This document shows positions 1 to 33,544 of a stretch of DNA of 64,000 nt, piece after piece. Within the stretch, counting starts at the first letter, position 1, and the number at the start of each line of letters is the position of its first letter. This DNA comes from Candidatus Binatia bacterium. GTDB lineage: Bacteria > Desulfobacterota > Binatia > UBA9968 > CAXXLF01. The DNA lies in contig CAXXLF010000002.1 of assembly GCA_963664015.2 (NCBI GenBank), positions 1,601,008 through 1,665,007 on the forward strand, read 5' to 3'. The notes under the pieces are model-generated. The model searched no databases. It worked only from the letters and a program-made list of their open reading frames with translations, and was not told the DNA's origin. The translations under genes were made by a program, and so were the position numbers.

Positions 1-1291
1 TGAAGACATACATTCGGTTCAGGGGATAGCCGAGAAAGCCGGGTCGAGGCGACACAGAGAGCTCTTCCACGTCTCCAAGCTGACACTCCATAGCGCGGGT
101 CCGGGCCCCGGTTTCCTCGATGACAGTAGTCGCACTGCTCAGTTGCTGTTTGAGTTTATCGAGGTCGGTACCAAATTTTCCGAACTCAGTCTTGACGGCA
201 GCGAGCACCTTCCAGACTCCCTTCGCCCGCTCCTCGATCATGAGAGTGCGGAAACCTATGCGCAGGCTATTGAGGATAACCGCCAGGGTGGTAGGGCCGG
301 CAACGACGACACGATAGTTCTGTTGAAGGTCGTCAACCAGCTCCGGCTGGCGCATGAGCTCTCCGTAAAGGCCCTCAATGGGAATAAATATTATGCCGAA
401 GTCGGTAGTCTTGGGAGGGTTTAGGTATTTATCCTTCATGGTTTTTGCTAGACCGCGTATGGCCTTGGTCAACTCATCGACGGCTTTTTTAGCGGTATCG
501 GCATCACCGGTTTCTGCCGCTGCCTGCAGCTGGCGGTACTCCTCCGCGGGGAACTTGGAGTCTATGGGTAGCCAGACCCAACTGTCCTCTGGGTTACCCG
601 GGCCCGGCAGTCGAATCGCGTATTCCACGGTTTCGTTGAATTTCTCTTTCGTTTTAATGTTCTTGTCGTACTGATTGGGTGTTAGCAACTGCTCCAGCGG
701 GGCGTTGAGTTGGAACTCGCCCCAGTTCCCCCGTGTCTTGACGCCGGTGAAAACTTTCTTTAGATCACCAACTCCAGTTGCCAGGTTTTACATCTCGCCC
801 AGCCCATCGTGAACCGCATTAAGCCGGTCGCTGAGAAGCTGGAAGGATTCGCCTAGTCGTTTCTCGATAGTGCCGTGTAGTTTATCATCCACGGTCATAC
901 GCATATCTTCCAGTCCTTTTTCATTGTTGTCTTGCAGCTCCCTCAGTTGGGTGTCCGCCGTTTCACAGAGCTCTTCAATATGCGCCGCATGAGTATCGGT
1001 GATCTCGTTGAGTAGCTTGCTGACCGACTCCAGTTGCACCGATTGCTGGCTGCCAATTTCATTGATGACCCGTACCATAGAGTCGCTGACCAAATTGAGG
1101 CCCCTGCTAACCTCCTCCCTCAGGTCGCGATCGGTCCTGGCCGCTTCGCCGCGGGCGATGCGTAGTTCTTCGCGCACGGCCTTCTCGGCTTACTGCGATG
1201 CCGATCCCGACAACCACATCAAGACAAGCAACAGCACGACGTTGGCAATCAGGAGAAAAACGGTCAGGGATGGTAAAATTTCAGTTAGCAT
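1..1291 (-). pseudogene. rmuC: DNA recombination protein RmuC, 3' end beyond window edge, interrupted by two in-frame TAA codons
   Basis: A single minus-strand frame starts at ATG 1291-1289. It gives an N-terminal TM helix (MLTEILPSLTVFLLIANVVLLLVLMWL), TAA at 1190-1192, a coiled-coil (the 788..1177 ORF) and TAA at 788-790. It then continues NLATGVGDLKKVFTGVKTRGNWGEFQL...WLPIDSKFPAEEY...IFIPIEGLY...VVVAGPTTLAVILNSL, which are the RmuC hallmark blocks, down to position 1. Confidence 0.75.
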
Positions 1292-1625
1292 ATCAATTCA
1301 CGCTCCTACGGGCTTTTATTCTCGAATCCGCAATTTATGATTTACCAAGGATCATTCCAGCGTCGGCTCAAACACCCCGTAGGAGCACCCCTGGTAGATT
1401 GGCGGATGGGGCGACCCCGAGGGCCCTAAAGACCAACGTATTTTTAACGACTTATGCTGCTTCAGACGTAGGGGAACTCAGCTCCAGGAGGGCCGCAACG
1501 TCCGCTGTTCCCCGAAACTACCAATAATTGACATAAGTGTGCCCGGACCGGGGGCGGTCTCAGACCTTCCGGGCCTTGCCCCCTCGGGTTCCAACTAACC
1601 TAACGGGCGTATGGTGGTGCCTAAC

Positions 1626-2067
1626 GCAAAGAGCAGAGCGCATAGCGCTCGGATTGTTAGTCCTTAGTTTTCAGGTAAGAAGTGTCGAGTGTTCAGTCAT
1701 CAGTATTTGGATCCCGATTCTTTAAACGCAGATGAGAAATCACCGAAGAGACGCTCTTCGATAAACTCAGGGTGGTGAGCGGTTCGAATCGGTCGAACCA
1801 CAGAGTACGCTGAGGGAAGAATCTTTGCCCAATCGGGAGACAGCGATTGGGCAGAGGGCCTCGTCTTTAAAGAGACAATGCTTTTTGTTTGCCGTCGTCT
1901 CCCGACAAACAAAAACCAATTCTCTGTGTACTCTGCGTCTCTGCGGTGAGATATCCGAATCCTCATCTGCGTTAATCAGCGAAAAATCTGCGGTTAATTC
2001 CCCTCTTAACTCTCTTGCTGCCCACTGCATACCGCCTACTGTCTTATTCCCGCGCCTTGCGCTTTGC
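1626..2067 (+). repeat. MITE-like intergenic repeat, copy A (same orientation as copy C), carrying a copy-specific insert of about 190 bp
   Basis: The left part (gcaaagagcagagcgcatagcgctcggatt...gatcccgattcttt) and right part (catctgcgttaatcagcgaaaaatctgcggttaat...ccgcctactgtcttatt...tgcgctttgc) align module by module with copy C at 38877-39169. The middle, about 1744-1935, is unique to this copy. Confidence 0.7.
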
Positions 2068-2116
2068 AGCTTCGCATTGACACCGCAGTTCGACATCAGA
2101 TATGTTCAGCCCCCAG

Positions 2117-2955
2117 ATGAACCATCGAAAGAAAATCGTGCCCCCCCCTGGCAAACGCCTTTCCGTATCGGTCCATTTCCCGGTGGAGTAGTGGAGTCAA
2201 AAGGATAAGGACTACTTACAAAACTATCGCCGGGAGTACGGGGTCAAGATTGGGGCCTGGAGGTTGCTCGACGTTTTTGATCGGGTAGGCATCAAAGGGA
2301 CCTGCCATATGAATGGAATCGTGGCTGAGCTGTTTCCCGATTTGGCCCGGGAGATCGTGCGGCGTGGACATGATGTGGCTGGGCACGGTTACGATCAGTC
2401 CGTTCCCCAGTACCGGGTGGGCCCTGACGAAGAGAGGGAGATCGTTAGGAGCACCCTGTCTACCATTGAACAGATTACGGGGTACCGGCCCCAGGGTTGG
2501 GTAGCCACGGGAAGGACAATTACAAAGGACACGCTTCGAATATTGGCGGAAGAGGGCGTGCTTTGGCACAACAACCACGATTTGGCCGACCTGCCAACTG
2601 GGGTCGAGGTTGGTGGTAAAATCATCCTCGATATTCCTATCCAGCGATACCTGAATTGCGACGAGAGAAGATTCCTCGGAATTGAAGGGAAGGGCCCCCC
2701 ATCAGCTTTAGAAATGTTCTGGAGTTTTTTAAAGATCAGCTGGACACCCTGAGAGGGGCCGCCCAGTATGAACCATTGTGTTTCGCGTTCGGCGCCCACG
2801 CCTATATGTCCGGCTTACCTGCTTACTCCTGGACTCTCGAGAGGATGTTGCATTACTGCCAGTCGTTTCCCGATGTCTGGACGGTGACAACGGCAGGTCT
2901 GGCTCGGTATTGGCTGGAAAATAATGTAGAGGCGATCCCCGTCAACAGTCGCTGA
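2117..2955 (+). pseudogene. PuuE/allantoinase-type polysaccharide deacetylase family gene with an in-frame TAG and a frameshift
   Basis: From ATG 2117 the frame reads ...KRLSVSVHFPVE, TAG (2189-2191), then WSQ...YRREYGVKIGAWRLLDVF...GHDVAGHGY...GYRPQGW. The frame changes at the C6 run 2695-2700. After that ...FFKDQLDTLRG...FGAHAYMSGLP...VWTVTTAGLARYW runs to TGA 2953-2955. The block order matches PuuE-type deacetylases as I recall them. Confidence 0.7.
2141..2148. repeat. poly-C8 homopolymer, in frame within the deacetylase N-terminus (VPPPG)
   Basis: Direct reading of the sequence. Confidence 0.9.
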
Positions 2956-3694
2956 GCCATGGGCCGAGCTGGGTGCAAAATGCTCCTATGGGACCCCGAT
3001 AGTGAAAGTCCACGATTTCATCCAGAGGTGTCGCTTCCCGATTAACAATGGCTAGGAAAGCGCCGTTTTGCTTTGCCAAGACCGGGAATGACGCGGCCGG
3101 CTGGACCTGCAACGAGGAGCCGAGAACGATGAATATACCGGCTACCTCACTGAGCTCCTGGGCCCTCCTCATGGCTTGGGGAGGCATACATTGACCGAAT
3201 GAAGCCGTGGCCGATTTGAGAAGGCCGCCGCATGCGTCGCAACGAGGCGAAGTAAAGGCACCGGCTAGCCCTTTCATGACCTGATCGGGATCGAAAATTT
3301 TACCGCAGCTCAGGCAATGGACTATACGATCGGTCCCGTGCAACTCCACGATCTTGTCATCAGGGAGACCTGCCAGACTATGCAACCCATCGACGTTCTG
3401 TGTGATCAGCCCGAGGAGTTTTCCCCGCTCGCATAGAGAACAAATAAAGAGGTGTCCAATATTAGGGCGGACGTCTTTGTAGAGTTCATGGGTCTTACGC
3501 TTCATGGTCCAGACGCGAACCCGTGCCTCTTCGCTGCTCAAGAACTCTGAGAAGTAAACGGGGGCGTATTGGGTCCAGATGCCGCCCGGGCTCCGGAAAT
3601 CCGGAACGCCCGATTCGGTGCTGATCCCCGCACCGGTGAAACACACGACGTCGCCCGTCTCTTTAATCTTACGGGCAAAATCCTGCAGAGTCAC
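2942..3694 (-). CDS. cobB: NAD-dependent protein deacylase, Sir2/CobB family
   Basis: 250-aa ORF with GAGISTESGVPDFRSPGGIW, QNVDGLH and Zn-ribbon cysteines (CLSCG...CDACGG). Confidence 0.9.
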   Translation of the reverse strand: MTLQDFARKIKETGDVVCFTGAGISTESGVPDFRSPGGIWTQYAPVYFSEFLSSEEARVRVWTMKRKTHELYKDVRPNIGHLFICSLCERGKLLGLITQNVDGLHSLAGLPDDKIVELHGTDRIVHCLSCGKIFDPDQVMKGLAGAFTSPRCDACGGLLKSATASFGQCMPPQAMRRAQELSEVAGIFIVLGSSLQVQPAASFPVLAKQNGAFLAIVNREATPLDEIVDFHYRGPIGAFCTQLGPWLSDC

Positions 3695-3770
3695 AGCCGG
3701 GGATCAGCAGCCTCGGGGTTTGAGGTCGAAAGAATTTTCCGAGACGAGTCAAGGATTCTGAGTTGCTCGT

Positions 3771-4136
3771 CTACTTGAGATGATTGCTGACCAGCTTGGT
3801 CATCTCAAACATGCTGACCTGCTTCTTGCCGCGAAAGACGGCTCTTAGGTTGTCGTCAGCATTGATCATGGTTCTCTTCTTTTTATCCTGTAGCCCTTTG
3901 CGCTTGATGTACTGCCAGAGCTTCTTGGTTACCTGCGTCCTAGGCATAGGCGTGGAACCAATCACGGCGGCGAGCATCGCGCTGGGCTTCACCGGTCTCA
4001 TGAAGGCCGCATTGGGTTTGCGTTTCTTCTTAGTAGCACGCTTTTTCTTTACGACGCGCTTTTTTTTTACGACGCGCTTTTTCGCCTTAGCCTTCTTTAC
4101 CACACGCTTCTTCGCTTTCTTTTTCTTTGCTGCCAT
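3771..4136 (-). CDS. SWIB/MDM2-domain protein with a histone-H1-like Lys-rich repetitive N-terminus
   Basis: 121 aa. The N-terminal roughly 45 residues are KK/KRVVKK repeats. The C-terminal part (PSAMLAAVIGSTPMPRTQVTKKLWQYIKRKGLQD...INADDNLRAVF) is SWIB-like. GAGGGAGGG lies just upstream of the ATG. Confidence 0.8.
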   Translation of the reverse strand: MAAKKKKAKKRVVKKAKAKKRVVKKKRVVKKKRATKKKRKPNAAFMRPVKPSAMLAAVIGSTPMPRTQVTKKLWQYIKRKGLQDKKKRTMINADDNLRAVFRGKKQVSMFEMTKLVSNHLK

Positions 4137-4253
4137 TTTCCCTCCCTCGGTAAAAGTATTCTTAAAATGAATTTTACATCAAATAGACTACTTTTGACCA
4201 GCTTTTTTTTGAAAAATTGCAACTTTCAGGGGGAACGCTCTAGAGGCACTTCT

Positions 4254-4263
4254 GGGGGGGGGG
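4254..4263. repeat. poly-G10 homopolymer in a non-coding or decayed region
   Basis: Direct reading of the sequence. A poly-A9 tract lies at 4402-4410 and a poly-T8 tract at 4203-4210 nearby. Confidence 0.9.
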
Positions 4264-4709
4264 AGCCGTTACCGAGGGGGAACCCTCTCTCGTGATCCCA
4301 ATCGACAGTGGGCAGTACGACTGGTGCCCTTGCATTCGCCGTGCTAACGGTCCTATGCTCCCACCTAAATATCCTGATTCTAGGTGGAGAGATCCCATGC
4401 GAAAAAAAAATATTCCAGTGGCTCGGTAGATAATTCGTTGTCCTCTCCTGCGAGGGGGACTCCAAAGAAACACCCGGTGCAGCCGCCGCCCGTATCCTTG
4501 CTCACTTCGAAGAGGAGCTGGATAGGGACTCACTATCACTAGCGCATACTGTATGTACTCGCCTCTGCGCCAGGGATCGTGAAAGTCGGAATCTAGCAAG
4601 GAACGAATGATTCAGAATACTGCCAAGGAAGGCCAGGTCAGCGAGTTCCAGCTATATCTTTCCAAACTATTTTGACTGCGATGCCCGGGTGGCCATGGAT
4701 CTGCCTGCC

Positions 4710-5083
4710 ATGAGGCCTGAACCGCCATGGAGTGAAAAAACCCTGGAGGAATACGATATCCACCCATCGTCCCCCTACACTACCTCACATACGAATCCAG
4801 GGTCTTCCTATCAGGGGTTACCGTTGTCCTACCTGAACTCGCCAATCAGCTAAGCGATATTCTCCCTCGTATTACGGGCTCCCTGGGCGACGCCGGTGCC
4901 TCATGGAATGAGGTGGTCAAGGTTGATTCCTTTCTCCACCGTTCCCAGAGATTAGAGACTTACAAGGGACTTTTTGCAAAGAATGTACTGGTGAAGATTC
5001 CCCAAATCGAATATGCGCTTGTGGATGGCTATTCATCAGAGGGAAAGTTAGTGGAGGTGGAGGTTACCGCTCAACTGACATAG
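4710..5083 (+). pseudogene. RidA/YjgF/L-PSP family gene with a 1-nt frameshift
   Basis: ATG 4710 gives MRPEPPWSEKTLEEYDIHPSSPYTTSHTNPG. The frame slips at GGG 4800-4802. The next frame gives VFLSGVTVV...GASWNEVVKVDSFL...KLVEVEVTAQLT and ends at TAG 5081-5083. These are RidA-like blocks (PYS..vFxSG, VVKvxxFL, vEvE at the C-terminus). Confidence 0.5.
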
Positions 5084-5120
5084 CCAGATAAAGAACCCTT
5101 GGGAAGGAGGCTCGACACCT

Positions 5121-6219
5121 ATGGCTCAAGCCGAATACCAATTGCTCACTCAAACAGATGCAGGGACACCCTGCGGGGAACTCATGCGGCGCTACTGGCA
5201 GCCTGCGGCTCTCTCAAGGGAACTGAACCCCCTTGCCCGTACGGCTGCTAGGAGATGATCTCGTCCTTTTTCGCGACGACGAGGGACGACCCGGCTTATT
5301 GGGTCTTCACTGTGCGCACCGAGGGGCCGACCTGAGTTACGGCCGGGTCGAGAACGGTGGATTGAGGTGCATCTATCACACCTGGCTTTATGACATCAAA
5401 GGTCGTTGCCTGGATCAACCGGGAGAGCCCCGTGGAGGAGAACACCGGAACTCCATCCAACACACGGCCTACCCCTGTCAGGAGTCTGGAGGGGTTATCT
5501 TCGCCTATTTGGGTCCAGGTGAGCCGCCGTGCCTTCCCGCATATGAATTGCTACAGGTACCCGACGATCATCGGTTGATTATTAAGGTCTTCCAGGATTG
5601 TAACTATTTGCAGGTGAACGAAGGGGGTATCGATCCGGTGCACACATCGTATCTACACCGTATCGCACAAGACGGGGATGAGGATCAGTATGTGGGAGTC
5701 CGGGGGACGGATACTTCGTTTTTGACTCTGTGGGAAAAAGACGCAGCTCCCCAAATTGAAGTAGAAATTACAGATGTCGGCCTGCGAATTCTTACCGTCC
5801 GGGACGCAGGAGACAACAAACATTACCTTCGATTCACTAATTTTGTTTACCCCAATTTAAGCGCCTTTCCCGCGCAGACGGGGGCCGAGGGGTACAACGT
5901 CAATTGGCATGTCCCCATGGACGATACACGTCACTGGAAATATATGTTCGTTTTCAGTCGAGAGAGGCCCCTTAGAAAAGAGATCATTAGCAGGGAACGC
6001 GCCGAGGACCGCACCAGGTCCAACCGGTACCGCCAAGACAGGGAATCCATGAAAACCAAATTCTACAGTGGCATGGGAAGGGATGTACCCAGTCAGGACA
6101 CCTGCATTATCGAGGGGCAAGGCCCCGTACCAAACCGTGAGCAGGAACACCTGGTCTCCTCGGATAAGGCCATCATCGCTGAGCGAAAACTTTTGCTCAA
6201 GGCCCTCCAGGACGTTTAG
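5121..6219 (+). pseudogene. Rieske [2Fe-2S] non-heme-iron oxygenase alpha subunit (phthalate-family type), frameshifted at a C5 run
   Basis: GGAGG then ATG 5121 gives MAQAEYQLLTQTDAGTPCGELMRRYWQPAALSRELNP, the typical N-terminus. The rest (PVRLLGDDLVLFRD...CAHRG..x17..CIYHTW Rieske motif, DPVHTSYLH iron motif) lies in the +1 frame from 5233. The junction is the C5 run 5228-5232. Confidence 0.8.
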
Positions 6220-6396
6220 GAGGGACGGGAAGCGCCCCATGTGGCGAGAGAGCCTAAGCGCAACCGGTTTCCCCAACTGGTGGTCATATCGGATGTCGTA
6301 CCCGGCGGGACAAATTGGAATAAATATACGGATAAGATTGAGGACGAACTGAAGGGTTAGGAGTAAAAAGACATGTGCCGGGAGAATCACGCCTGA

Positions 6397-7140
6397 TCAG
6401 GTTAAATATTTACCAAACCAGTTAAAGACTCTGTTCCATCCATCCAGCGCCGCATCCGGCCAGTAGCCCGGACGGTCAACGGAAAAGAAACCGTGGGCCG
6501 CGTTTCCGTACGAATAAAACTCATGGGTCTTACCAAGCCGCTTGAGTTCCGCGTCGATCGTCGCCACATCGTCCGGAGAGGGATGGGTGTCTTCTTTGCC
6601 AAAGAGGCCCAACAAGGGGGAATGCATATTCGACGTTAGATCAATCGGGGCTACCGGGTGGCGGGGAGTGAGTTTGTCCGTAGGGGTTACGATTCCTCCA
6701 CCGTAGCAGACAACGGTCGCGTCGATGTCAGCGAAGGTGCATGCAGCAAGATAAGCTTGGCGGCCACCGGAACAGTGCCCCACAACACCGACCTTTCCCT
6801 TACCGTAGGGTAGCGATCGCATGTGCCGGATGGACCCTTCAACGTCCCCCATGGAGCGGTCGTCGGGCATACCTCCCGCTGCCCGGACACTGGCGACATT
6901 GGCTTCGGGACTTCCCTTGCCTTCCCGATAGTGAAGATTAGGTACGATTGCCGCGTAGCCATGATAGGCCAACTTGCGGGCAATTTCCTTGGTGGATTCA
7001 TCCCACCCTGGCATGTGATGGATGACAACAACCGAAGGGTACGGCCCTTGGCCCAGGGGACGGGCCAGATAAGCCTCGATCCTGTCCCCATTGTGTCCCG
7101 CAAGGGCGACACTTTCCGCTAGCATCCCTTCATAAACCAT
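6397..7140 (-). CDS. dienelactone hydrolase family protein
   Basis: 247 aa with VVVIHHMPGW, the nucleophile elbow GHCSGG and a C-terminal AAHGF, laid out as in the DLH family. Confidence 0.8.
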   Translation of the reverse strand: MVYEGMLAESVALAGHNGDRIEAYLARPLGQGPYPSVVVIHHMPGWDESTKEIARKLAYHGYAAIVPNLHYREGKGSPEANVASVRAAGGMPDDRSMGDVEGSIRHMRSLPYGKGKVGVVGHCSGGRQAYLAACTFADIDATVVCYGGGIVTPTDKLTPRHPVAPIDLTSNMHSPLLGLFGKEDTHPSPDDVATIDAELKRLGKTHEFYSYGNAAHGFFSVDRPGYWPDAALDGWNRVFNWFGKYLT

Positions 7141-7212
7141 CTTTTGTCTCCTTACTTCCTTAAAACTCCTCTCGCCTATGTCGCGACTGTGATCAAGAGC
7201 TCGCCGACACAG

Positions 7213-7579
7213 CTACTCGCCGATGATTTTCACCAGGACGCGCTTTCGCCGGCGGCCGTCGAATTCCCCGTAAAAGATCTGTTCCCAGGGCCCGAAATCC
7301 AACCGGCCTCCGGTTGCCGCAACGACCACTTCACGTCCCATGACCTGGCGCTTCATATGGGCGTCAGCGTTGTCTTCGCCGGTGTCGTTGTGCCGATACT
7401 GGCCGATGGGTTCACGAGGCGCCATTTCCTCAAGGCACCGGGCATAGTCCTGATGCAGGCCTGACTCATTGTCGTTGATAAACACCGACACGGTAATATG
7501 CATCGCGTTGACGAGCACCGGCCCATCCTGCACACCGCGTGGGCTTGTTAAACTAAAGTTCCTGCCTGTAGCTCTTCAC
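7213..7579 (-). pseudogene. yjbQ: YjbQ/UPF0047 (secondary thiamine-phosphate synthase) gene with an in-frame TAG plus an internal deletion/frameshift
   Basis: GTG 7579 gives [11 protein letters not shown] (7553-7555), then FNKPTR. The frame then switches into [23 protein letters not shown]...[15 protein letters not shown]...[26 protein letters not shown]. About 18 residues expected between the two parts in the 135-140-aa family are missing. Confidence 0.65.
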
Positions 7580-7588
7580 AGCACCGCC

Positions 7589-8211
7589 CTATCCTTGATG
7601 TTCTCCCCGGATCTCCTTGAGGCGCCGATCGCGGCCGCACGAGTAGCGGTAGATGGCGTATCGAATGGGGGTTTTCCGATAGTAGTCCTAGTGATACTCC
7701 TCTGCCTTGTAGAACTCGGTGGCCTGAGCGATTTCAACCACGATGGGCACGTCGAAGCGTCCCGAACCCTGCAGCGCCTTTTTGGACTTTTCAGCTAAGG
7801 CCTTCTGCTCTGCGTCGTTATAGAAAATACCGGGGCGATACTGACTGCCAGCATCACAGAACTGTCGGTTTGCCGTAAACGGATCGATGTTGATCCAGAA
7901 GACCTCAAGCAGTTTTGCGTAGCCGATCTTTTTCGGGTTGCAACGGACTTGAACCGCCTCCGTGTGCCCAGTACCGCCCCTGGATACCTCCTCATACGTG
8001 GGGACTTTCTGATGACCGCCGGTATAACCGGAGGTCGTCGAGAGCACCCCGTCCAGTTCGTCAAAGGGTGCTCCATGCACCAGAAGCAGCCGCCGCCAAA
8101 GGTCGCAGTCGCAATTGGACCAGAACTCGCATCTCGGCCGCCTGCACCGTGACCGTTCGCCACCCACGCCACAAGCAGCAGGCAAATAAGGGATGTAATT
8201 TTAAGAACCAT
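7589..8211 (-). pseudogene. msrA: peptide-methionine (S)-S-oxide reductase MsrA with signal peptide, carrying a frameshift and an in-frame TAG
   Basis: The signal peptide and ATFGGGCFWCMEHP are in one frame (ORF 7795..8211). FDELDGVLSTTSGYTGG...TGHTEAVQV...QYRPGIFY...FYKAEEYH is in another (ORF 7688..8185). TAG at 7688-7690 sits where the conserved YHQ.Y glutamine lies. The frame then continues DYYRKTPIRYAIYRYSCGR... to TAG 7589-7591. Confidence 0.8.
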
Positions 8212-8235
8212 AAGGGATCGTGTAACTCTTGCTCG

Positions 8236-9087
8236 CTACAGGAGTCCTTCCCCGGTGGCTACGCAACGGAACCCGAAGTAGGCATGGCCCGACTGGGCCC
8301 GCCAAGGGTCAACCACCTCTCTTGCCGTGGCCATAAGCCCGTCGGCCTCGCTTGACGCGTCCCCCCCCCGGGCGACGATAGACCCCCCGGTGGAAAGCTC
8401 CTCGCGGCCATCCTTGGGGTCGTAGGGATAGGGTCGAAAGAGAGACCGGGTCCATTCCCAAACCTGCCCCGCCATATCGAGTACTCCATAGGGACTTGCC
8501 CCCGACGGATATTGCCCTACAGGCACGGTTTCACCCCGATAGCCATCGATAAAAGCCAGGTTCAGGCTTGGGGGATCATTCCCCCAGGGGTAGAGCCGTT
8601 GGTCCTGCCCCCGAGCGGCCTTCTCCCACTCGGCCTCACTGGGCAGTCGTTTGCCTACCGACTGGCAATAGACAGCCGCGCCATACAAGCTCAGCTCCGC
8701 TGCCGGGTAAGCTTCGAAGCCGGGATCGGGTAGCCAACCGTCTTCGCTTTCATGAATCCGGGCATCTTCATCCTCCACATCCAGGTACATCTCACCGCGC
8801 GGTCCCCGGGGCCCTTTGGCCCGGATGAGCTTAACGTATTCGCCTACGGTAACAAGATTTTGATCGATGTAAAAAGAAGGCAAGAAGACCGTGTGCGCCG
8901 GACCTTCGTCCGGCGGACCACCATCCCGCCCCATGCTAAAGGGTCCGGCGGGGATCAAGACCATCCCTCCATATGGGCCGCTCGGCGACGAAGCCTGCCC
9001 TGACGCCGCCCGGGTAAAGGCGAAGCTGTACGCCCCGACAACCATCCAGAAGACAAAGAACAGGGAAACTCTTCGTACCTTAGGCAT
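8236..9087 (-). CDS. formylglycine-generating-enzyme (SUMF1/EgtB/PvdO) domain protein, secreted
   Basis: 283 aa with a signal peptide, MVLIPAGPFSMG...DEGPAH.V.L..FYID...VT..EY and W.WGN...GN.WEW blocks. It contains an in-frame G9 run (plus-strand C9 at 8361-8369). Confidence 0.8.
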   Translation of the reverse strand: MPKVRRVSLFFVFWMVVGAYSFAFTRAASGQASSPSGPYGGMVLIPAGPFSMGRDGGPPDEGPAHTVFLPSFYIDQNLVTVGEYVKLIRAKGPRGPRGEMYLDVEDEDARIHESEDGWLPDPGFEAYPAAELSLYGAAVYCQSVGKRLPSEAEWEKAARGQDQRLYPWGNDPPSLNLAFIDGYRGETVPVGQYPSGASPYGVLDMAGQVWEWTRSLFRPYPYDPKDGREELSTGGSIVARGGDASSEADGLMATAREVVDPWRAQSGHAYFGFRCVATGEGLL

Positions 9088-9167
9088 GTCCCTTTCTCTT
9101 CCATCACAATGAAGAATTCAAGCCCATTCTGATCCCAATCTGGTTGAATTGAGTCGATGCGAAGACT

Positions 9168-9693: not shown

Positions 9694-9768
9694 TCAGACT
9701 GATCCCCCTCCCCGGCGCTCCAACTTAAACGTCAAGTCGTGAAATCTTGGGCTCGACGCCGTTCTTGG

Positions 9769-10690: not shown

Positions 10691-10785
10691 GAACGCCCTC
10701 CCTCGATCCCAAAGGGTCTTTAAAACAGTCGCTTAAGACTTAAGGATTGCAATGCCCCACGCCGCCCTATAACTTTTGAAGAGCC

Positions 10786-11508: not shown

Positions 11509-11546
11509 CCTACAGACATCTCCCATGGAGGCCCAATTAGCGAACA

Positions 11547-12422: not shown

Positions 12423-12462
12423 ACCAACCGGCGCCGGTTGATCGCGATCTCATTTCATTGCT

Positions 12463-14621: not shown

Positions 14622-14676
14622 CGCTGCCCAATCTACCGGTTGCAAGCAGAGGGAAGAAAAGCTACAGATGAGGCTA

Positions 14677-14712
14677 GCCAGGCCAAATTGGCCCGGCTTT
14701 GCTTTTATTTCG
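14677..14712 (+). terminator. candidate intrinsic terminator downstream of the ATP-grasp gene
   Basis: GCCAGGCC-aaatt-GGCCCGGC forms an 8-bp stem with one mismatch, followed by TTTGCTTTTATTT. Confidence 0.5.
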
Positions 14713-14751
14713 TATTTTGCGACTTTATATTTTACCCCGGAGGCCCGGTTC

Positions 14752-15888
14752 ATGCTTGTTAAGATGGCTCAAGGAGCCACCCCCGAACAGATAGTAGCCG
14801 TGGAGAAGAAACTCCACGAATGGGGCTATAAAACCGGCAAGATGGAGGGTGAGGAGATCACCTTGATCGGGGCCTATGGGGATATCACCCAACTTCCGCA
14901 AGGGGAACTTCGGGAGATGGGCGGCGTTGAAAGGCTGATTCCGATCTCACGCTCCTACAAGCGGGCCGCCCAGAAGGGTTCCCCGGGAAATCCCATCTAC
15001 CGAACCGTCACCATCGGAAACCTAGACGTCGGTGGCGATGACCTGACCGTAGTGGCCGGCCCATGCTCCGTGGAAAGCGAATCCCAGGTGATGGAAGCGG
15101 CCCGTATCGTTAAAGAGTCCGGGGCCCAGGCCCTTAGAGGTGGAGTTGTCAAATACCGTTCGAGCCCTTACAGCGGATGGGAAGGGATTGGTTCGACCTC
15201 AGGGGAAGCGTTACGCAACGGTTTGAAACTCATCGCACAAGCGGGCAGGGAATTTGGCCTCCCGACGGTAGTTGAGGTACTCGACCCAGCCGACGTCTCG
15301 ATCTACGAAGATATGGGAATCGATTGCATCCAGGTCGGTGAACCCAACTCGAAGAACCAGGCGCTGCTTAACCGGCTGCGCGAGACGCCCCTCCCGGTAA
15401 TCCACAAACGAGGCAACTCACTGGATATCGAGGCTTATCTGCTCTGGGTGGAGCGAATCATGGCTACGGGCAAAGAGAATGTCATTCTCTGTGAACGCGG
15501 CGTCTTCAGCGCTAACAAATACACCCGCAACACACTGGACCTTGGCGGCATCGCCGCCCTACGCCACCAGCTTTCGTGCCTCCCCGTCGGAGTGGACGCC
15601 TCCCACGGTACCGGCATACGGGACCTGGTTCATTCCATGACCCTGGCCGGTATCATGGCGGGAGCTTCCCTTGTGCTGATCGAGGCCCATCCCAACCCGC
15701 TCATTGCTAAATCCGACGGTTTTCAGGGTCTGTTCCCCGAGCAGCTATTGCACCTGGTTAACGCCTGCAAAGAGGTTTGGAAGCTCCGCACGCGGATCGA
15801 TTCGCTTTACGTACCAAGCGCAAAACTAGAGCATGAATACGAGGCTCGGATCCCAAGCGATAAAAAACGATTCTTCGGCGCAGCGTAA
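14752..15888 (+). CDS. 3-deoxy-7-phosphoheptulonate (DAHP) synthase, type I-beta with an N-terminal ferredoxin-like regulatory domain
   Basis: GGAGG at 14740-14744 precedes ATG 14752. Motifs VVAGPCSVES, RGG..K.R.SPYS..G.G and GEPNS-like are present. The longer track ORF from 14434 overlaps the ATP-grasp gene and is not needed. Confidence 0.85.
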   Translation: MLVKMAQGATPEQIVAVEKKLHEWGYKTGKMEGEEITLIGAYGDITQLPQGELREMGGVERLIPISRSYKRAAQKGSPGNPIYRTVTIGNLDVGGDDLTVVAGPCSVESESQVMEAARIVKESGAQALRGGVVKYRSSPYSGWEGIGSTSGEALRNGLKLIAQAGREFGLPTVVEVLDPADVSIYEDMGIDCIQVGEPNSKNQALLNRLRETPLPVIHKRGNSLDIEAYLLWVERIMATGKENVILCERGVFSANKYTRNTLDLGGIAALRHQLSCLPVGVDASHGTGIRDLVHSMTLAGIMAGASLVLIEAHPNPLIAKSDGFQGLFPEQLLHLVNACKEVWKLRTRIDSLYVPSAKLEHEYEARIPSDKKRFFGAA

Positions 15889-15899
15889 ACGCCCTTCTT

Positions 15900-16166
15900 T
15901 TGAACCGGCGGCCCCGAGCCGTCCATGGAGCAGACGCTTCATTGGTATTAGCGGGGATCACCCATGCCCGGGGTGTGGACCTCTTTATTTGCGAGTGCAC
16001 CTTCTTCGATGGGGAAGACCCCAGCCATATGACCTACCAGCAGATTAGAGACAAGCTGCCGCACCTGGAGAGCAAGAAAATCGTCCTGACCCACATGGGT
16101 CGAGAGATGCTGGCTCACAGAAACGACATCCCATTGGAAACGGCCAAAGACGGCATGGTGGTGTAG
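15900..16166 (+). pseudogene. 5'-truncated remnant of an MBL-fold metallo-hydrolase (C-terminal roughly 85 aa only)
   Basis: Only ...GVDLFICECTFFDGEDPSHMTYQQI...KKIVLTHMG... is present. No HxHxDH region is found, and the fragment begins 11 nt after the DAHP synthase stop. Confidence 0.5.
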
Positions 16167-16239
16167 TTCTAAACGATCGTGCTAGCATCTTTGGCATCCC
16201 CTGTTACAGGAAACATCGGGTGGAACTCGTGGAGGCCTC

Positions 16240-17133
16240 ATGGAAATAATCAAAGCTAGTTTTCAGGACGTTAAGGGAATTCCGCCCAGCGGGCTGTGCG
16301 TCGGAGTGCATCGGGCAGGGGCCATTCATACAAATATGCTAAAAAAATACGGTGACGGCATCACGGTCTGGTCCCTCAGGCCCCACCTGGACTTTGTCGC
16401 CTTTAAAAAGGAGGGATTGGGGGAAAAGGGGATCCGGGCCACCAGCGACATGGAGTCCATAGAGGGGGAGAAGCTCATCTATGGGGTGCGCGGAGCTCCT
16501 CCGGAGATTCGCCGCAAGGCCGAGGAACGAGGGCTCCAGTTGCTCGCAGACGCCACCTGCCCCTTCGTACTGGAGCAGGAGAAGGCCGAGGTGGAGTTAC
16601 TGCAGCAGGGTTTCAACCTGGTGGTTCTTAGCAGCCGCACCCATCACGGGATCCCGCGTCTCGAGGGGATCGCACGGGATGCGGGACGAGAGGTCTTCGT
16701 CGTAGAAAAGGAAAAAGACGTGGATCAGATCCACCTCACCCGCTTCGAGCCAATCGGCGTTATCGTTCAGACAACCTTCTGGATGGAGTCCTACAAGACC
16801 ATCATGGCGCGCATCCTCGACCGCTTTTCCAACGTACGGATCAGGAATACAGCTTGTATCGACTCTTACCAGCGTCTCCCTGAGGTGGAGAAACTGGCCA
16901 AGCAGGTGGATGCCGTTGTTGTGGTGGGGTGGACCGAGGGGATGACGACACGAATGGTCGAGGTGGCAAGAGCCTTCAACCCCAGTGTCTATAAGCTGGA
17001 GAACGTGGATCATCTCCAAGCCGATTGGTTCTATGGAAAAGAAAAAGTGGGGGTAATCGGGGCCAATGAGACCCCCGACTGGATGGTGGATGAGGTCATA
17101 GAGCGGATAAAATCACTTGGCGAAATCGTTTGA
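16240..17133 (+). CDS. divergent IspH/LytB-like [4Fe-4S] protein (paralogue-like)
   Basis: 297 aa. Three Cys sit in IspH-like contexts (GLCVGV, DATCPFV, NTACIDSYQR) and QTTF is kept. However SAHG becomes VRGAP and the SSNS-type substrate loop becomes WTEGMTT. Confidence 0.65.
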   Translation: MEIIKASFQDVKGIPPSGLCVGVHRAGAIHTNMLKKYGDGITVWSLRPHLDFVAFKKEGLGEKGIRATSDMESIEGEKLIYGVRGAPPEIRRKAEERGLQLLADATCPFVLEQEKAEVELLQQGFNLVVLSSRTHHGIPRLEGIARDAGREVFVVEKEKDVDQIHLTRFEPIGVIVQTTFWMESYKTIMARILDRFSNVRIRNTACIDSYQRLPEVEKLAKQVDAVVVVGWTEGMTTRMVEVARAFNPSVYKLENVDHLQADWFYGKEKVGVIGANETPDWMVDEVIERIKSLGEIV

Positions 17134-17199
17134 AATGCTCGGTTAAATTTTGGATTACGGAATAAAGAAAAAAATGACTCGCGCGTAAGAATTCAGTCT

Positions 17200-17481
17200 A
17201 TGCCGAATATTACCTTCATGCCTTCCGGTCAAAGTTTCGAGGTTGAAATGGGAACCACCATTCTCGCTGCCGCTATTCACAACGGTCTTCACCTGCCGCA
17301 CGACTGTACCGAGGCGATTTGCGGGACCGACCGGGTCAAGGTCCTGGCCGGTGCCGAGAACCTGAGTGAAAAGAGCGACAACGAAGACCTGACACTGAGC
17401 ATGTTAAATGCCGATTCAGAGGACCGCCTTGGCTGCGTGGCGCAGATCCTTGGTGAGGTCACCGTTCAAATCCCTTCATAA
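17200..17481 (+). CDS. 2Fe-2S ferredoxin-fold protein lacking one canonical Cys ligand
   Basis: 93 aa. HDCTEAICGTDRV occupies the place of C-x4-C-x2-C, so the third Cys is Asp. The distal Cys is in RLGCVAQI. Confidence 0.5.
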   Translation: MPNITFMPSGQSFEVEMGTTILAAAIHNGLHLPHDCTEAICGTDRVKVLAGAENLSEKSDNEDLTLSMLNADSEDRLGCVAQILGEVTVQIPS

Positions 17482-17653: not shown

Positions 17654-18972
17654 TTATTTCGGGACCTGCCGGAAATAATCCTGGGACGCCTCCATAACGC
17701 GTGGCGATAACAGCAACGCCGCCATCATCGTTGGCAGCGCCATGAAGGCAAAGCCGGTATCGAGCAAATTGACAACACTCTCGGTGGTACAGAGGGCACC
17801 CAGCACAATCATGGCACAATAAAAATAATTGTAGAAATGGCCGTGCCCCCAACCCACGAGATACGAGAAACACTTGCGACCATAATAGGAGTATTCCACC
17901 ATCGTGGAAACCGCAAAGAGGACCACAGACAATACGATCAGGAGCCGACCCAGGCCGCCCATGGCGGATTCGAAGGCCTGAGACGTTAGGTCGACGCCCC
18001 GAACACCCAAGCCCTGCCAGTTGCCCTCCACCAGCACCACGAGCGAAGTCATTGTACAAATCACGATGGTGTCGATAAAGGGACCATTCATTGCCACGAG
18101 ACCTTCACGCACGGGCGGGCGGGTTTTGGCCGCACCATGGGCGAGCGCAGCCGTCCCGATACCCGCCTCGTTGGAGAAGGCTGCCCGTTTGACGCCTGTG
18201 GCTATGACTTTGGAAACGGCAATCCCCGTCGCCCCACCGGCGGCGGTTCCGCTTAAGGCATCATGAAAGATCATGGCGAACAGACCCGGGATCTCCTCCA
18301 GATGTGTTCCGAGTATATAAAGACAGGCGAGAATATAGACTCCGCACATCAGGGGCACGATGCGGCTCGTGACTCTTCCTATGCGTTGAATCCCACCCAT
18401 AATCACGCCGCCAACGATCAGCATCCCGCCCACTCCGGTCCAGCCCCGGCTCAATCCGTAGGAACTCTCCAGAACCTCTGCCAATTGATTGGCCTGAAAA
18501 AGAGTCAGGCAACCCACCAGCCCGCAAACGGAAAACAAAAATTGCCAGGAGCCGAAAGAGCCGCCCCAGACCTGCCTCGATAAAATACATGGGCCCGCCT
18601 TGATCCACTCCGTACTCGTCCCTCAACCGGTACATACAGGCAAGGGTGCAGGTGAAGAACCTGGTGGCCATGCCCACCGTTGTAGAAACCCACATCCAGA
18701 ACACGGCTCCCGGCCCCCCCCTGGGTGATGGCTACCGCTACGCCGGCAATATTACCCATCCCGACAGTTGAGGAAAGAGCCGTAGAGAGCGCCTGGAAAT
18801 GCGCAATCTCACCGGGATCGTTTGGATCATCCCATTTACCGCACAAGATTTGCCAGGAATGACGAGCGTAACGAAACAGTGTAAAGCGGGAGTAAAGGGT
18901 AAGAAACAACCCGCCGCCAATCACGAGAACGATCAGTGGCCATCCCCATGCGTAGCCGACGGCTACGAACAA
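17654..18972 (-). pseudogene. alanine/glycine:cation symporter (AGCS family) with two frameshifts
   Basis: Three overlapping ORFs carry consecutive AGCS blocks: ...FQALSTALSSTVGMGNIAGVAVAITQGG / FWMWVSTTVGMATRFF...GGPMYFIEAGLG / SVCGLVG...QANQLAEVL.... Shift 1 is at the G8 run (plus-strand C8 at 18714-18721). Shift 2 is in the T5/T4 runs near 18531-18542. Confidence 0.8.
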
Positions 18973-19059
18973 GAAACGATCAACAGTGGAAAGCCAGGTG
19001 TCAAATTTTAACCAAAATTATTTGAAATGTTCCCGTGGAATTTCGGATTACCAATTGGG

Positions 19060-19275: not shown

Positions 19276-19448
19276 CGAAATTCTTTGTTAAAGTCGTTCT
19301 GTTGAACCTTCAATAGGTAAGAATAAGGTTATCCGCGTCCACGAGACACTATTAAGGTATTGTTGAATTGCATTTTGAACTGAATTAGGCTCTGTATGCA
19401 GGGATTCTCATTTTGTAATCCATAGGCGAAACGTACCTCAACGGCTTC

Positions 19449-22168
19449 ATGCGATTCAATATTCAAGCCATTTTGCTGCTTCTTGTGGTAGCCTGCACCC
19501 CGGCATGTCAAACTGTACGCTTAACCCAGGGACGTACCAATATTCCTTCGGGTCAGCTGGCCAAGACCGTCATCCCCACTCACTACGATCTGGCACTCAC
19601 CGTCTTCCCGGATCAAGAGCGCTTTCAGGGCCGCGTTGCGATTGACGTTGAAATTCGGGAACCGACCACACTCATTTGGCTCCATGGCTATGGTTTGAAT
19701 GTCACTACCGCCTCGCTGGCGCTGGCCAACGGACGAAAACTGGTTGGTGGTTATAAGCAGATCAATGACGACGGTGTCGCACAGGTGCAGCTCCCCGAGC
19801 GGGTCGAGCCCCAACACGCCCGTTTGTTGTTCGAATATGACGCACCTCTTATAACAACCGACCTGGAGGGGCTATACCGCGTTCAGCAAGGGAAGGACTG
19901 GTACGCTTTCACTCAATTCGAAGCCATCGCAGCCCGCCATTGCTTTGTCTCCTTCGATGAGCCGGCCTTCAAGGCGACCTTTGCAGTATCCTTAACGGTT
20001 CGGGCTGAGCACAGGGCCCTGGCCAATACGCCGCAGGTGGGAGAGGAGCGTCTCACGGGGAATACCAAGAGGGTGCAATTCCCCACTACAAAGAAAATCC
20101 CAACTTATCTGGTAGCGCTTGCGGTGGGCCCCCTCGACGTGGTGGAGGCTGAGCCTATACCCCTTAACTCCGTCAGGCAGGTTCCGGTGCCACTGCGAGG
20201 AATTGCGGCTCGCGGCCAGGGCACCCGCCTGGCATACGCACTTAAGCACACCGGTCGCCTGCTGAAGATTCTAGAGGAATACGTCGGCATTGCCTATCCT
20301 TTTCAAAAGCTTGACATTGTCGCCGTGCCGAAATTCGGCGGCGGAGCCATGGGAAACGTGGGTCTCATCACGTTCAGAGATCGAATACTCATGGTCGACG
20401 AGGTGACGGCTTCGGTCAATCAGAAGCAACCCTTCGCCTACTATATGGCTCATGAACTTGCCCACCAGTGGTTCGGTAATCCGGTCACCATGCCATGGTG
20501 GGACGATCTTTGGCTCAACGAAGCTTTCGCAACGTGGTTGGAATATCGAGTCGTTGAAGCCTTCGACCCGAGCACCAAGGCTAGGGTGGGTCAACTGAAA
20601 GACATCCTCGAGACGATGGATGAGGACAGCTTGCTTTCTACACGCGAGATCCGCCAGCCGATTGTCACCGCCCACGACATCGACAACGCTTTCGATGGAA
20701 TCACGTATAGCAAAGGTGGTGGCGTCATCTCGATGTTCGAGCGTTTCCTTGGCGCGGAGCAGTTTCAAAAAGGGGTCCGCCATTACTTGAATAAGTTTAG
20801 CTATCAAGTGGCCGACACAGAACAGTTTCTCGCGGCCCTATCCTCTGGATCGGGAAAGGATATCAGCGACTCCTTTCGGACATTTTTAGTTCAACCGGGT
20901 GTCCCCCTCGTGGAGTTTCAACCAAGTTGTAACAACGGCACCGCTAGCGTGTTGCTGCGCCAATCACGCTATATCCCCTTCGGATCCAATGCCCCGTCGG
21001 ATCGAATTTGGCAAGTACTGTCTGCCTCCGCTATGGGATAGGGGGTGAGGCCTTCGAGACCGGCGAACTCATCGGAGCACAAGAGACTGTCATGCAGGTA
21101 TCTACTAGCGGTTGCCCCGACTGGGTCCTGCCAAACGCCGACGGCGCTGGATACTATCGCTGGACCCTGCCCGCAGAAGAGCTACGCCGTTTGAACGCCA
21201 CTGCAAAGGATTCCCTATCAACTCGCGAGCTCTTGTCGGTGGGAGACAGCCTCTGGGCAGACTTTACAAAGGGCACGGTTTCAGCGGCTACGGCTTTAGA
21301 GCTGGCACCCTGGGTTGCCCAACACCCCGAGCGGGAGGTGGCGACAGTACCGATGGAGCTCGTCCGGTTTACGCGCAACCGCTTGGTCCGTAAGGGCCAA
21401 CGGCGCAGCGTCGAGAGGTTCGCGAATGAACTGTACGATGACGCGTTGAAACGGTTAGGGGTAACTCCGAAAGCCGGCGAACCCAACCAGTCCCGCTTGT
21501 TCCGGAGGGATCTGCTGGCGTTCCTTGCACGCGTCGGCCGACACCCTGAGGTGCGTCGAGCACTGGCGCGGTCGGGGTGCGCCTATATCGGTTACAAAAC
21601 AGACGGATTGATTCACCCGGAGGCAGTCGATGCAGATCTGGTCCCTTTGGCCCTCGGTGTTGCAGTCCAAGAAGGTGATGCCGAATTTCTTGATGCTATG
21701 GTCAAGCATCTTAAAGACAGCGAGACCGATTCCGTGGTTCGCAGGCATCTACGCGCCGGCCTGGTACAGGCGACTGAACCAGAGCTCGCCGAGCGAGTAC
21801 GAAACCTGATCTTGAGCGGTAGCGGCCGTACCCATCAAAAGGTTCGGTTGCTACGGCGTCATTTACGGTTGAGCGAAAATCATGCATCGGGACTCCAGTG
21901 GTTGCGTGAGAATCTGGAGAAGCTCCTGACCAAGATTCCATCGGACCACGGGGGCTCTTTGGTTTGGGTCACGGCCTCTTTTTGTAGTTCAGACGAGGCG
22001 GTTTTGGTTCAACAGCTGTTTGGACCCAGTATTAACACGCGGCCAGGCGGGCCCCGCGACCTGGCTGCCACATTGGAAACCATCAACCAGTGCGCGGCGC
22101 TGCGGCGGGCGCAGCAGGCGAGCGCCCGAGCCTTTTTTAATCAACGGCCTACGGCCCAGTTCAAATAG
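19449..22168 (+). pseudogene. pepN: M1-family aminopeptidase N-like lipoprotein, frameshifted, with a degenerate exopeptidase motif
   Basis: ORF 19449..21041 carries a lipobox (LVVAC), HELAHQWFGN and WLNEAFA. ORF 21008..22168 carries the ERAP1-C-like domain (WVLPNADGAGYYRW). A 1-nt frame break lies near 21020-21025. The GAMEN motif reads GAMGN. Confidence 0.8.
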
Positions 22169-22209
22169 TGAGTTAGCCGTCGCCAAAACTTATAATTCGG
22201 AGGAGCACT

Positions 22210-22856
22210 ATGGAGAGCCAACAGTTCGTACACGAGCTTCTGGATACGGTGAACGGATTCTGCCGATCACTGGATACTCGACCTCCTGCATACAGCTATA
22301 TTCCCCTGAAAACGGACGAAGAGCGGGTTCGAGTCATGAAGAGTCGTTTATTCAACGAGCTCCGAGCATCGGACCTCTACGGGACCTGGCTCAAGACAAC
22401 ACGTGAGTTTGAAGTCAAGGCCTTGATGGCAAAGTCGGCCCACGAGGAAACGGTCCATGCGGATCTCCTGGCCGCTCGGATTCCCAAACTCGGGCATGAC
22501 CCTTCGATTACCGCCCGCTTCCCGCACAGACGGCGATGTTCAACGCCCTGGAGGGGCTCATGGATACCTGCCAGCGTATTGCGAGGTTTTCCCTGGCAGG
22601 GGAAGCCGTTGCGACCTACCTGACTCAAATGAGTCTTCAGGAGGCGTCGGCACCCGAATGGATCAAGCAGCCCTATAGGCGGATTACCGACGATGAGGAG
22701 AGTCACGGGAGTGTTCCCCAGGATATTCTAAAACATTATGCGACGGCGTCGGAATCGCAGAATGCGGCGCGCCGGGCGGTGGCTATGCGTCTCGTCCTCT
22801 TTCGTGAGTATCTCTCAAGCCTCGACCGGTGGGCAACGGGGAAATCCCCATGGTAG
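22210..22856 (+). pseudogene. ferritin-like di-iron (two ExxH) protein gene with a 1-nt frameshift
   Basis: ORFs 22210..22623 and 22536..22856 overlap in different frames. AHEETVH and DDEESHG are the two ExxH motifs. Reading continuity (..LGHDP / FDYRPLPAQTAMFNALEGL..) is restored by one extra T near 22505-22512. Confidence 0.5.
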
Positions 22857-22985
22857 ATTGGTAAAGTCACCCGCTAGCCAGAAACCACTGACGTAAACCA
22901 GTAGTGGCCTCATTGTTATCAAACGAGCCTGCCACACGTGAAGAGGGTGCTCCCTCCTTATTTCCGGTCACCGTCTAGTTCAGAG

Positions 22986-33537: not shown

Positions 33538-33544
33538 AACGAAG

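Follow-up and report, generated by a model that had tools for sequence, protein, structure and literature searches.

Bacteria that change niche accumulate pseudogenes, as is known from Mycobacterium leprae, Sodalis glossinidius, Yersinia pestis, Salmonella Typhi, and Shigella. Pseudogene formation under relaxed selection is a textbook process, and what I describe here is a new example of it, in an uncultured member of the Binatota. The example lies in a stretch of 64,000 nucleotides (nt), hereafter the window, which is part of the 3,357,617-bp contig ena:ERZ28669063:ctg33932 (also at NCBI; adding 1,888,770 to a window position gives the position in the record). Judged by comparison with related DNA, about half of the genes within the window's first 23 kb are recent pseudogenes, ordinary gene decay caught early. 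A full-text literature search turned up no paper that names both Binatota and pseudogenes.

The cluster resembles what is seen in the niche-changing pathogens and symbionts in several respects. The genes hit by nonsense mutations, small frameshifts, and deletions are ones for transport, catabolism, and stress, and essential genes are spared. Dead genes carry several lesions each and are trimmed by deletion, and their orthologs are intact in close relatives. The case is unlike theirs in that the density of pseudogenes is shown here for 23 kb only, and that the sequence gives no sign of expansion of insertion sequences (IS), drift towards AT, or host association. Then there is the strain-level loss-of-function polymorphism of free-living bacteria. 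As in those bacteria, populations with about 96-97% identity lack the lesions, accessory genes are the ones affected, and the gene content of the neighborhood varies among relatives, but 12 broken loci out of 23 adjacent ones, many with two or three lesions, seems far denser than scattered single alleles. A third comparison is with frameshift-rich metagenome-assembled genomes (MAGs) built from long reads. This is also a metagenome contig with split open reading frames (ORFs), some of them split at mononucleotide runs. However, its lesions are mostly substitutions and multi-base deletions, the homopolymers of its intact genes are correct, and the lesions track relaxed selection.

The source of the DNA is an uncultured relative of the Binatia (Binatota), since the top named homologs of its IspH and Sir2 proteins come from Candidatus Binatia MAGs (some labelled 'Deltaproteobacteria') with 75-84% amino acid (aa) identity, and the closest match to its Peptidase_Mx protein in a scan of GTDB representatives has 71%. 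The sequence examined amounts to about 71 kb of the 3.36-Mb contig, the window plus about 7 kb of its left flank. Loci were checked by Pfam scans of frame translations in which stops had been replaced with X. Lesions were placed by nucleotide and codon-guided alignment to syntenic orthologs in relatives (designated by L numbers), with matches to NCBIfam and PDB as support.

A cluster of broken genes

Twelve of the 23 loci in the first 23 kb are broken, as against 2 of about 35 between 23 and 64 kb (Fisher p = 8e-5), and the density of intact coding sequence is 38% in the first part and 82% in the second. Over the whole window, 14 of about 58 loci (24%) are broken. An earlier note on this DNA had counted at least 12 disrupted loci out of about 27. 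All 12 that it named hold up when examined through Pfam, syntenic orthologs, and NCBIfam or PDB, and it is the total that must come down to 23. Homology to a known family, by one or another of these resources, is clear for 11 of the 12 and for the two later loci; the twelfth, a ferritin-like gene, is weakly matched.

The counted lesions number 23, nine of which are substitutions and six multi-base deletions or truncations. The substitutions create in-frame stops, eight of them in the first 23 kb and the ninth at 34244-34246. The earlier note had seven, and was right that all three stop codons are represented. It had also claimed at least nine 1-nt frameshifts, which is too many: there are six in the first 23 kb and one more near 47750. 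The number falls because some of the changes called as single bases are in fact a 2-nt insertion (at 4756) and deletions of 11 nt (at 5225) and 53 nt (at 7538). A deletion of 34 nt (at 9209) is the remaining small lesion. The larger losses took about 1.67 kb from a Mo-hydroxylase gene, about 0.5 kb from a gene for a hydrolase of the MBL fold, and about 75 codons from the N-terminus of a PuuE-like gene. Deletions ranging from tens to more than 1500 nt, as had been supposed, were thus located by ortholog alignment (11, 34, and 53 nt, about 0.5 kb, and about 1.67 kb).

How the lesions are distributed matters as much as how many there are. They are confined to 14 genes, where a uniform model leads one to expect 18 (P = 0.02), and with a uniform lesion rate the probability that the 42 kb of intact coding sequence would have escaped altogether is 5e-8. 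Uniform sequencing error therefore does not explain the contrast between the two parts of the window. The long housekeeping ORFs that had been described as free of lesions are indeed intact. For example, gltB (22986-27548, minus strand), the first long undamaged housekeeping ORF after the cluster, encodes 1520 aa and matches its 1520-aa ortholog in L017 over its full length with 78% identity.

The damage, locus by locus

At the left edge of the window, an rmuC pseudogene (1-1295, minus strand, the gene ending at about window position 1) carries a TAA at 788-790 within the RmuC domain, and the Pfam match (3-288 of 291) reads straight through it. A probable second in-frame TAA, at 1190-1192, follows the N-terminal transmembrane helix. 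Next to rmuC lie about 0.9 kb (1296-2191) with no detectable coding homology: there is no ORF, no Pfam match in any of the six frames, and no tblastn similarity to ORFs of relatives. This may be fully eroded DNA. The PuuE-like polysaccharide-deacetylase pseudogene that comes after it (2192-2955, plus strand) has a frameshift in a C6 run near 2697, where the gene, after a Pfam match to Polysacc_deac_1 (21-120 of 124), continues in another frame. When the two parts are rejoined, they align to residues 80-309 of PDB 3s6o (321 aa) and to positions 72-294 of 297 in TIGR03212. From the starting points of these alignments, about 75 (70-79) residues have gone from the N-terminus.

A RidA-like pseudogene (4398-5080, plus strand; 227 aa in relatives), aligned to intact copies in L020 and L021, contains a TAA at 4431, a TGA at 4608, and a duplicated AT at 4756, which accounts for the 2-nt insertion. 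Beside it, a Rieske/LigXa oxygenase pseudogene (5121-6345, plus strand) has suffered the 11-nt deletion at 5225 and a change from CAG to TAG at 6217-6219. Both its Rieske and LigXa_C domains are recognized by Pfam, its N-terminus lies in a different frame, and orthologs of 417-422 aa are intact in L020, P0259, and P0265.

The yjbQ pseudogene (7216-7579, minus strand) combines a change from TGG to TAG (7553-7555) with the 53-nt deletion at about 7538, which is bordered by imperfect short repeats (CCGCATTGG / CCGCGTGGG). Its Pfam match lacks the first 12 profile positions, and the orthologs in L011 and L020 agree here with the conspecific contig L024, described below. In the msrA pseudogene (7592-8235, minus strand), loss of a single nucleotide near 8066, which is not in a homopolymer, leaves the GGGCFWC active site in one frame and the rest of the PMSR domain (Pfam 14-151 of 153) in another, and CAG has become TAG at 7688-7690.

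The Mo-hydroxylase gene, of the xanthine-dehydrogenase family, is reduced to a remnant (9180-9690, plus strand). Relatives have 733-748 aa, and by tblastn against L011, residues 2-76 are now fused to 633-744, so that 77-632 (about 1.67 kb) were lost at about 9400-9407. The 34 nt are missing at 9209 as well. All that remains for Pfam to recognize is 2-54 of 110 in the hammerhead domain (Ald_Xan_dh_C) and 238-279 of 283 in MoCoBD_2. A TauE/SafE permease gene (9770-10500, minus strand) is interrupted by a premature TGA at 9886-9888, through which the Pfam TauE match (36-235 of 237) reads. The stop cuts off the last 38 residues, still conserved downstream, and L025 has GGC (Gly) in its place with the same sequence following.

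Further along, the MBL-fold hydrolase gene survives as a C-terminal remnant (15915-16166, plus strand) comprising residues 160-242 of 244, the 5' part of about 0.5 kb (the first 159 codons) having been deleted. It was recognized by tblastn to an intact 244-aa MBL protein, encoded between DAHP synthase and IspH in L010 and L011, and it has a weak RNase Z-like match in NCBIfam. The AGCS (Na+/alanine symporter) pseudogene (17657-19008, minus strand) is spread over three frames, each with its own portion of the 392-position Pfam Na_Ala_symp profile (8-46, 42-104, and 99-388). One extra base lies at 18714-18721, where the coding strand has 8 G vs 7 G in L016 (the run is interrupted in L015), and a second near 18541, where T4 has become T5. 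In the pepN-like M1 aminopeptidase pseudogene (19449-22168, plus strand), a single 1-nt deletion near 21018 parts the Pfam domains Peptidase_M1 and ERAP1_C.

The cluster ends with a gene for a ferritin-like di-iron protein (22210-22856, plus strand), probably split by a 1-nt deletion near 22500 that leaves one ExxH motif in each frame. A weak EncB/ferritin-like match in NCBIfam covers the first half only. In relatives the gap after pepN is filled not by a ferritin-like gene but by one resembling acyl-CoA dehydrogenase, and so no intact ortholog is available as a reference, which makes this locus the least certain of all.

Two broken genes lie beyond the cluster. One is a UbiG-like methyltransferase pseudogene (33851-34510, minus strand), in which CAA has become TAA at 34244-34246. 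The other is an amino-acid permease pseudogene of the APA family (47519-48896, plus strand) with an extra base (A3 to A4) near 47750, and NCBIfam coverage of it begins at about position 70 of the models. The earlier note had placed three additional disrupted loci in this part of the window. The nonsense mutation at 33.8-34.5 kb and the frameshift at 47.5 kb are real, and the third, at about 52 kb, is possibly two overlapping genes. At 50692-51800 a rhodanese ORF (146 aa) and an MBL-fold ORF (223 aa) lie in different frames and overlap by 4 nt. As a pair they are similar to the fused rhodanese-dioxygenase Blh (NCBIfam NF040641), and may be either a split fusion or a pair of coupled genes. A sensitive tblastn search with the ORFs of all relatives found no further remnants in 1150-2960, 4130-4420, 10490-10800, or 22150-23000.

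The same neighborhood in distant relatives

Among distant syntenic relatives, full-length orthologs of the broken genes were found wherever there was a reference at all. L010 and L011 have YjbQ (139 aa), MsrA (217 aa), FGE, Mo-hydroxylase (747 aa), NUDIX, Peptidase_Mx, ATP-grasp ligase, DAHP synthase, MBL hydrolase (244 aa), IspH, and Fer2, arranged in the order of the window. L020 and L021 have the Rieske oxygenase (417 aa), the RidA-like protein (227 aa), SWIB, Sir2, and RmuC (451 aa, intact in L020). Beside gltB, AGCS is a single ORF of 461-465 aa in L015 and L016, and PepN a single ORF of 910 aa in L015 and L017 and of 929 aa in L016. For TauE (L025) and RmuC (L020), the syntenic reference is a C-terminal fragment only, and the search for syntenic orthologs recovered none for the PuuE-like or the ferritin-like gene.

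Intact genes lie within the cluster and serve as controls. Sir2 and SWIB (2942-4136, minus strand) find full-length matches in L020, L021, and L025. The SWIB-domain protein (3771-4136) has a long lysine-rich N-terminal extension, and its pairing with the adjoining Sir2 is kept in the same three relatives. A block of genes at 10867-17481 (plus strand) encoding NUDIX, rhomboid, Peptidase_Mx, ATP-grasp ligase, DAHP synthase, IspH, and Fer2 is 69-86% identical in amino acids to L011 over its full length, and only the MBL remnant breaks it up.

The accessory genes of the neighborhood form a set conserved in the Binatia: Rieske oxygenase, Cu-oxidase, SDR, amidohydrolases, Mo-hydroxylase, TauE, MsrA, and YjbQ. 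The content nonetheless varies, with Cu-oxidase, SDR, and Amidohydro_2 genes present in L020 and L025 and absent from the window and L011. On the side of Sir2 where the window has 1296-2191, L020 and L021 have an Amidohydro_2 gene instead.

L025 (JGI 3300040963, Ga0451373_80079) might have been taken for a close relative, since its Rieske gene is 90% identical in nucleotides, but elsewhere identity is only 68-79%, and for that reason it served as an outgroup only. The disparity hints at recombination or transfer of the Rieske gene. The RidA-like/Rieske pair of L025 (1653-3487) is also damaged, independently of the window. Its RidA-like gene is in two frames with residues 164-190 missing, and an in-frame deletion in its Rieske gene removes the first Cys-x-His ligand motif.

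Intact alleles in conspecific populations

More telling than distant relatives are populations that differ little from the one sampled. A search for protein clusters sharing 90% identity or more with proteins of the window led to two JGI metagenome contigs, L023 and L024, and one further JGI protein, P0284, all about 96-97% identical to the window and here called conspecific. L023 (JGI 3300060026, Ga0586925_0055933) has 96.6% nucleotide identity over window positions 33173-38729. L024, from the same metagenome, was compared over positions 6775-9407, and its FGE is 96.5% identical in amino acids.

Both msrA (207 aa) and yjbQ (139 aa) are intact in L024, which has CAG and TGG at the two codons that read TAG in the window. 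It also retains the base lost from msrA, the 53 nt lost from yjbQ, and the 34 nt absent at 9209, and its Mo-hydroxylase gene runs on for 414 nt past the breakpoint at 9407. P0284 is an intact permease of 458 aa, 94-97% identical to both frames of the window's broken one, and the methyltransferase gene of L023 has CAA where the window has TAA. Since msrA, yjbQ, the start of the Mo-hydroxylase gene, and the permease gene are whole in conspecifics, their lesions are strain-specific and recent, having arisen within a synonymous divergence (dS) of about 0.02-0.08. It is the existence of these populations, so similar and with intact alleles, that allows the lesions to be polarized and roughly dated. 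The earlier note had called for a comparison with orthologous loci in close genomes, and its outcome is full-length copies wherever a reference exists and intact conspecific alleles.

Not all of the decay need be equally young. Measured against distant relatives, the recently broken genes are about as well conserved as intact ones (yjbQ 83% identical to L011, AGCS 79-87%, pepN 74-80% to L015), whereas the stubs of the Mo-hydroxylase and MBL genes share only 54-64% identity with L011, in the midst of neighbors with 69-86%. This points to two ages of decay.

Signs of relaxed selection in broken genes

The ratio of non-synonymous to synonymous divergence (dN/dS), estimated against the conspecific contigs by the method of Nei and Gojobori, lies between 0.21 and 0.42 in all but one of the seven intact genes compared, and reaches 1.49 in the broken methyltransferase gene and 0.69 in msrA. 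Pooled, the counts of non-synonymous and synonymous changes are 67:31 in broken genes vs 56:53 in intact ones (p = 0.016). Per 100 nt, the methyltransferase gene differs from that of L023 by 5.6 substitutions, much like the 5.2 of intergenic DNA and well above the 1.3-2.2 of its five intact flanking genes. All four insertions or deletions (indels) that distinguish the window from L023 fall in spacers or in the methyltransferase gene, and with both conspecific contigs considered, indels are found in pseudogenes or intergenic DNA only, never in intact genes.

The L023 copy of the methyltransferase gene (660-1382) has 4-nt and 13-nt indels of its own near the 3' end and stops about 40 codons early. 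The gene seems, from these two alleles, to be decaying independently in the two strains. As for the intact genes (those at 6775-9407 compared with L024 and at 33173-38729 with L023), a dN/dS of about 0.2-0.4 is rather high for housekeeping genes. It could mean weak purifying selection, or it could be the usual excess of young non-synonymous variants.

Real, recent, and ordinary?

The earlier note had read the lesions as real and ongoing decay under relaxed selection, and the intact conspecific alleles and the raised dN/dS in broken genes bear it out. Very probably, these are true and recent pseudogenes, which ordinary spontaneous mutation has produced in a single strain of Binatia from genes that had become dispensable. 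Several points weigh against that reading. The lesions are known from the consensus sequence of the contig, not from reads. Two frameshifts in AGCS, the one in the PuuE-like gene, and possibly others lie in mononucleotide runs for which there is no conspecific reference, and the splitting of the ferritin-like gene and one of the rmuC stops (1190-1192) are deduced from reading frames only. Of the 3.36-Mb genome, only about 71 kb were examined. Among the intact genes, Ferric_reduct has a dN/dS of 1.19, albeit from very few changes, and among the broken ones, the values for yjbQ (0.33) and for the stub of the Mo-hydroxylase gene (0.43) are not clearly raised. Low values are what one would expect of genes inactivated very recently, but they lend no positive support.

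Could the genes be whole in the organism and broken only in the contig, through errors of sequencing, polishing, or assembly? The contig does come from a metagenome assembly, and three or four of the one-base frameshifts are in mononucleotide runs (8 G and T5 in AGCS, C6 in the PuuE-like gene, A4 in the permease gene). However, errors of that kind do not account for nine stop-creating substitutions, nor for deletions of 11, 34, and 53 nt that have short repeats at their ends or lie at a distance from homopolymers, and no sequencing platform produces losses of 0.5 or 1.7 kb as an error. The 1-nt deletions in msrA and pepN are outside long runs, 12 homopolymers of at least 7 nt inside intact genes carry no frameshift, and the broken genes are no richer in homopolymers than the others. 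Nor would errors know to confine indels, relative to independent conspecific contigs, to pseudogenes and spacers, or to gather in genes with raised dN/dS and extra divergence. With few lesions in homopolymers, intact genes spared by indels, several lesions per gene, and dN/dS raised, sequencing error is very unlikely. There is still less to be said for programmed recoding, in which selenocysteine at TGA or programmed frameshifting would leave some of the interrupted genes functional, and I give it almost no credence. In its favor, an OsmC-like ORF just outside the window has a TGA at the expected catalytic cysteine, with a hairpin 8-32 nt downstream. Within the window, though, the two TGA stops replace Arg (RidA-like) and Gly (TauE), not cysteine or selenocysteine, and all remaining stops are TAA or TAG. 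The frameshifts are accompanied by other lesions or deletions in the genes concerned, and an Rfam search found no recoding or SECIS element. For the TGA stops of the window, the ancestral codons in relatives essentially refute recoding.

Another possibility, raised as an alternative in the earlier note, is that the lineage went through a mutator phase that scattered lesions everywhere, with only those in dispensable genes surviving. It is true that rmuC itself is broken and that the four best-polarized nonsense mutations are all G:C to A:T transitions, but a bias of that sort is common to bacterial mutation. With L011, L020, and L025 as outgroups, I count 41 derived changes on the branch of the window and 26 on that of L024. 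The sample is small, no gene is significant in a relative-rate test, the pooled binomial p is about 0.09 (an estimate), and the spectrum of derived changes is mixed. The dS to conspecifics (0.02-0.08) is alike in the cluster and at 33-38 kb. I consider a mutator phase very unlikely. Hypermutation confined to the locality I reject because of the like dS inside and outside the cluster together with the low dN/dS of intact cluster genes, and it follows from the same two observations that the clustering is best explained by the identity of the genes. I infer that the cause is relaxed selection acting on these functions and not a mutational process peculiar to the region, and that an ecological change lies behind the relaxation.

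Local decay or the start of something larger

How far beyond the window does the decay extend? The cluster could be a dense sample of a wave of pseudogenes sweeping the whole genome, this strain being at the very start of reductive evolution after restriction to a host (a sponge, for example) or some other niche, or after a bottleneck, with its conspecifics still intact. The broken fraction of the window, 24%, is well above the few percent typical of free-living bacteria, the lesions are recent and strain-specific, and dN/dS is fairly high even in intact genes. Binatota are regular members of sponge microbiomes (PMC12166358, PMC12586988, PMC12181767, PMC13087572). Three sponge genome notes mention Binatota MAGs, none of them this contig. 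The 'ctgNNN' form of the contig name resembles names that I associate with metaMDBG, the HiFi assembler of those sponge projects, but a resemblance of names does not tie the organism to a host.

Most of what the sequence offers speaks for something more local. Outside the cluster the window has just 2 broken loci out of about 35, and the 7 kb of left flank, judged by gene lengths and Pfam matches, are intact save for the TGA-interrupted OsmC-like ORF. No transposase or IS element is found among the genes called in about 71 kb (L001, L013, L014, and L022). The GC content of the window, 54.3%, is like that of its closer relatives L015, L017, L020, and L021 (52.5-54.6%), and hence there has been no drift towards AT. 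Without transposases and with a GC content like that of relatives, the sample lacks the classic marks of early host-restricted reduction. The data favor a local neighborhood of dispensable genes, the 'local junkyard' that the earlier note had named as the outcome against its own reading, and genome-wide erosion I consider rather unlikely. If it were true, it would be the first such transition known to me in the Binatota, and a natural time series of early decay without IS.

How the cluster may have come about

I consider relaxed selection on a neighborhood of mixed genes the most likely cause. Accessory genes for oxidoreductases, hydrolases, stress repair, and transport are interleaved with essential ones, such as those for DAHP synthase, IspH, and ferredoxin. 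Once selection stopped protecting the accessory genes, one lesion would inactivate each of them and more would gather afterwards. The lesions would be supplied by stop-creating substitutions, by slippage in short runs, and by deletions with short repeats at their ends. A bias towards deletion would then trim the dead genes, as it may already have trimmed the Mo-hydroxylase and MBL genes to stubs, while the essential neighbors would remain under purifying selection.

The order of events is visible in the window: a first lesion, further lesions, then deletion. Should the pattern prove to be genome-wide, it would flag a shift in the lifestyle of the lineage. There is also a practical consequence for annotation. 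Fourteen loci in the window merit a pseudogene flag, where the deposited calls are short 'hypothetical' ORFs.

Other observations

No tRNA genes or Rfam elements were found in a search across the window. A LigA-like ORF (30380-30625) adjoins LigB (29413-30276), encodes only 81 aa, and has a weak Pfam match. LigA subunits are usually longer, and this may be another truncated gene.

The best-scoring match to IspH came from L009 (ena:ERZ21829490:contig_10), which was set aside as a distant organism (its gltB is 50% identical). The IS elements of L009 are irrelevant to the window. Its IspH, of 370 aa, contains an internal duplication, and around the gene lie IS66, IS1595, a group II intron reverse transcriptase, and an ABC permease in fragments.

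The OsmC-like ORF in the left flank (L013 17286-17822, about 3.6-4.1 kb to the left of window position 1) is split by its in-frame TGA within the motif ...AGAAG-TGA-LTMQY. Rfam gave no match here. The TGA stands at what I take, by eye, to be the position of the catalytic cysteine in this family. Considering that position and the hairpin 8-32 nt downstream, the ORF may be a candidate selenoprotein gene rather than a pseudogene.

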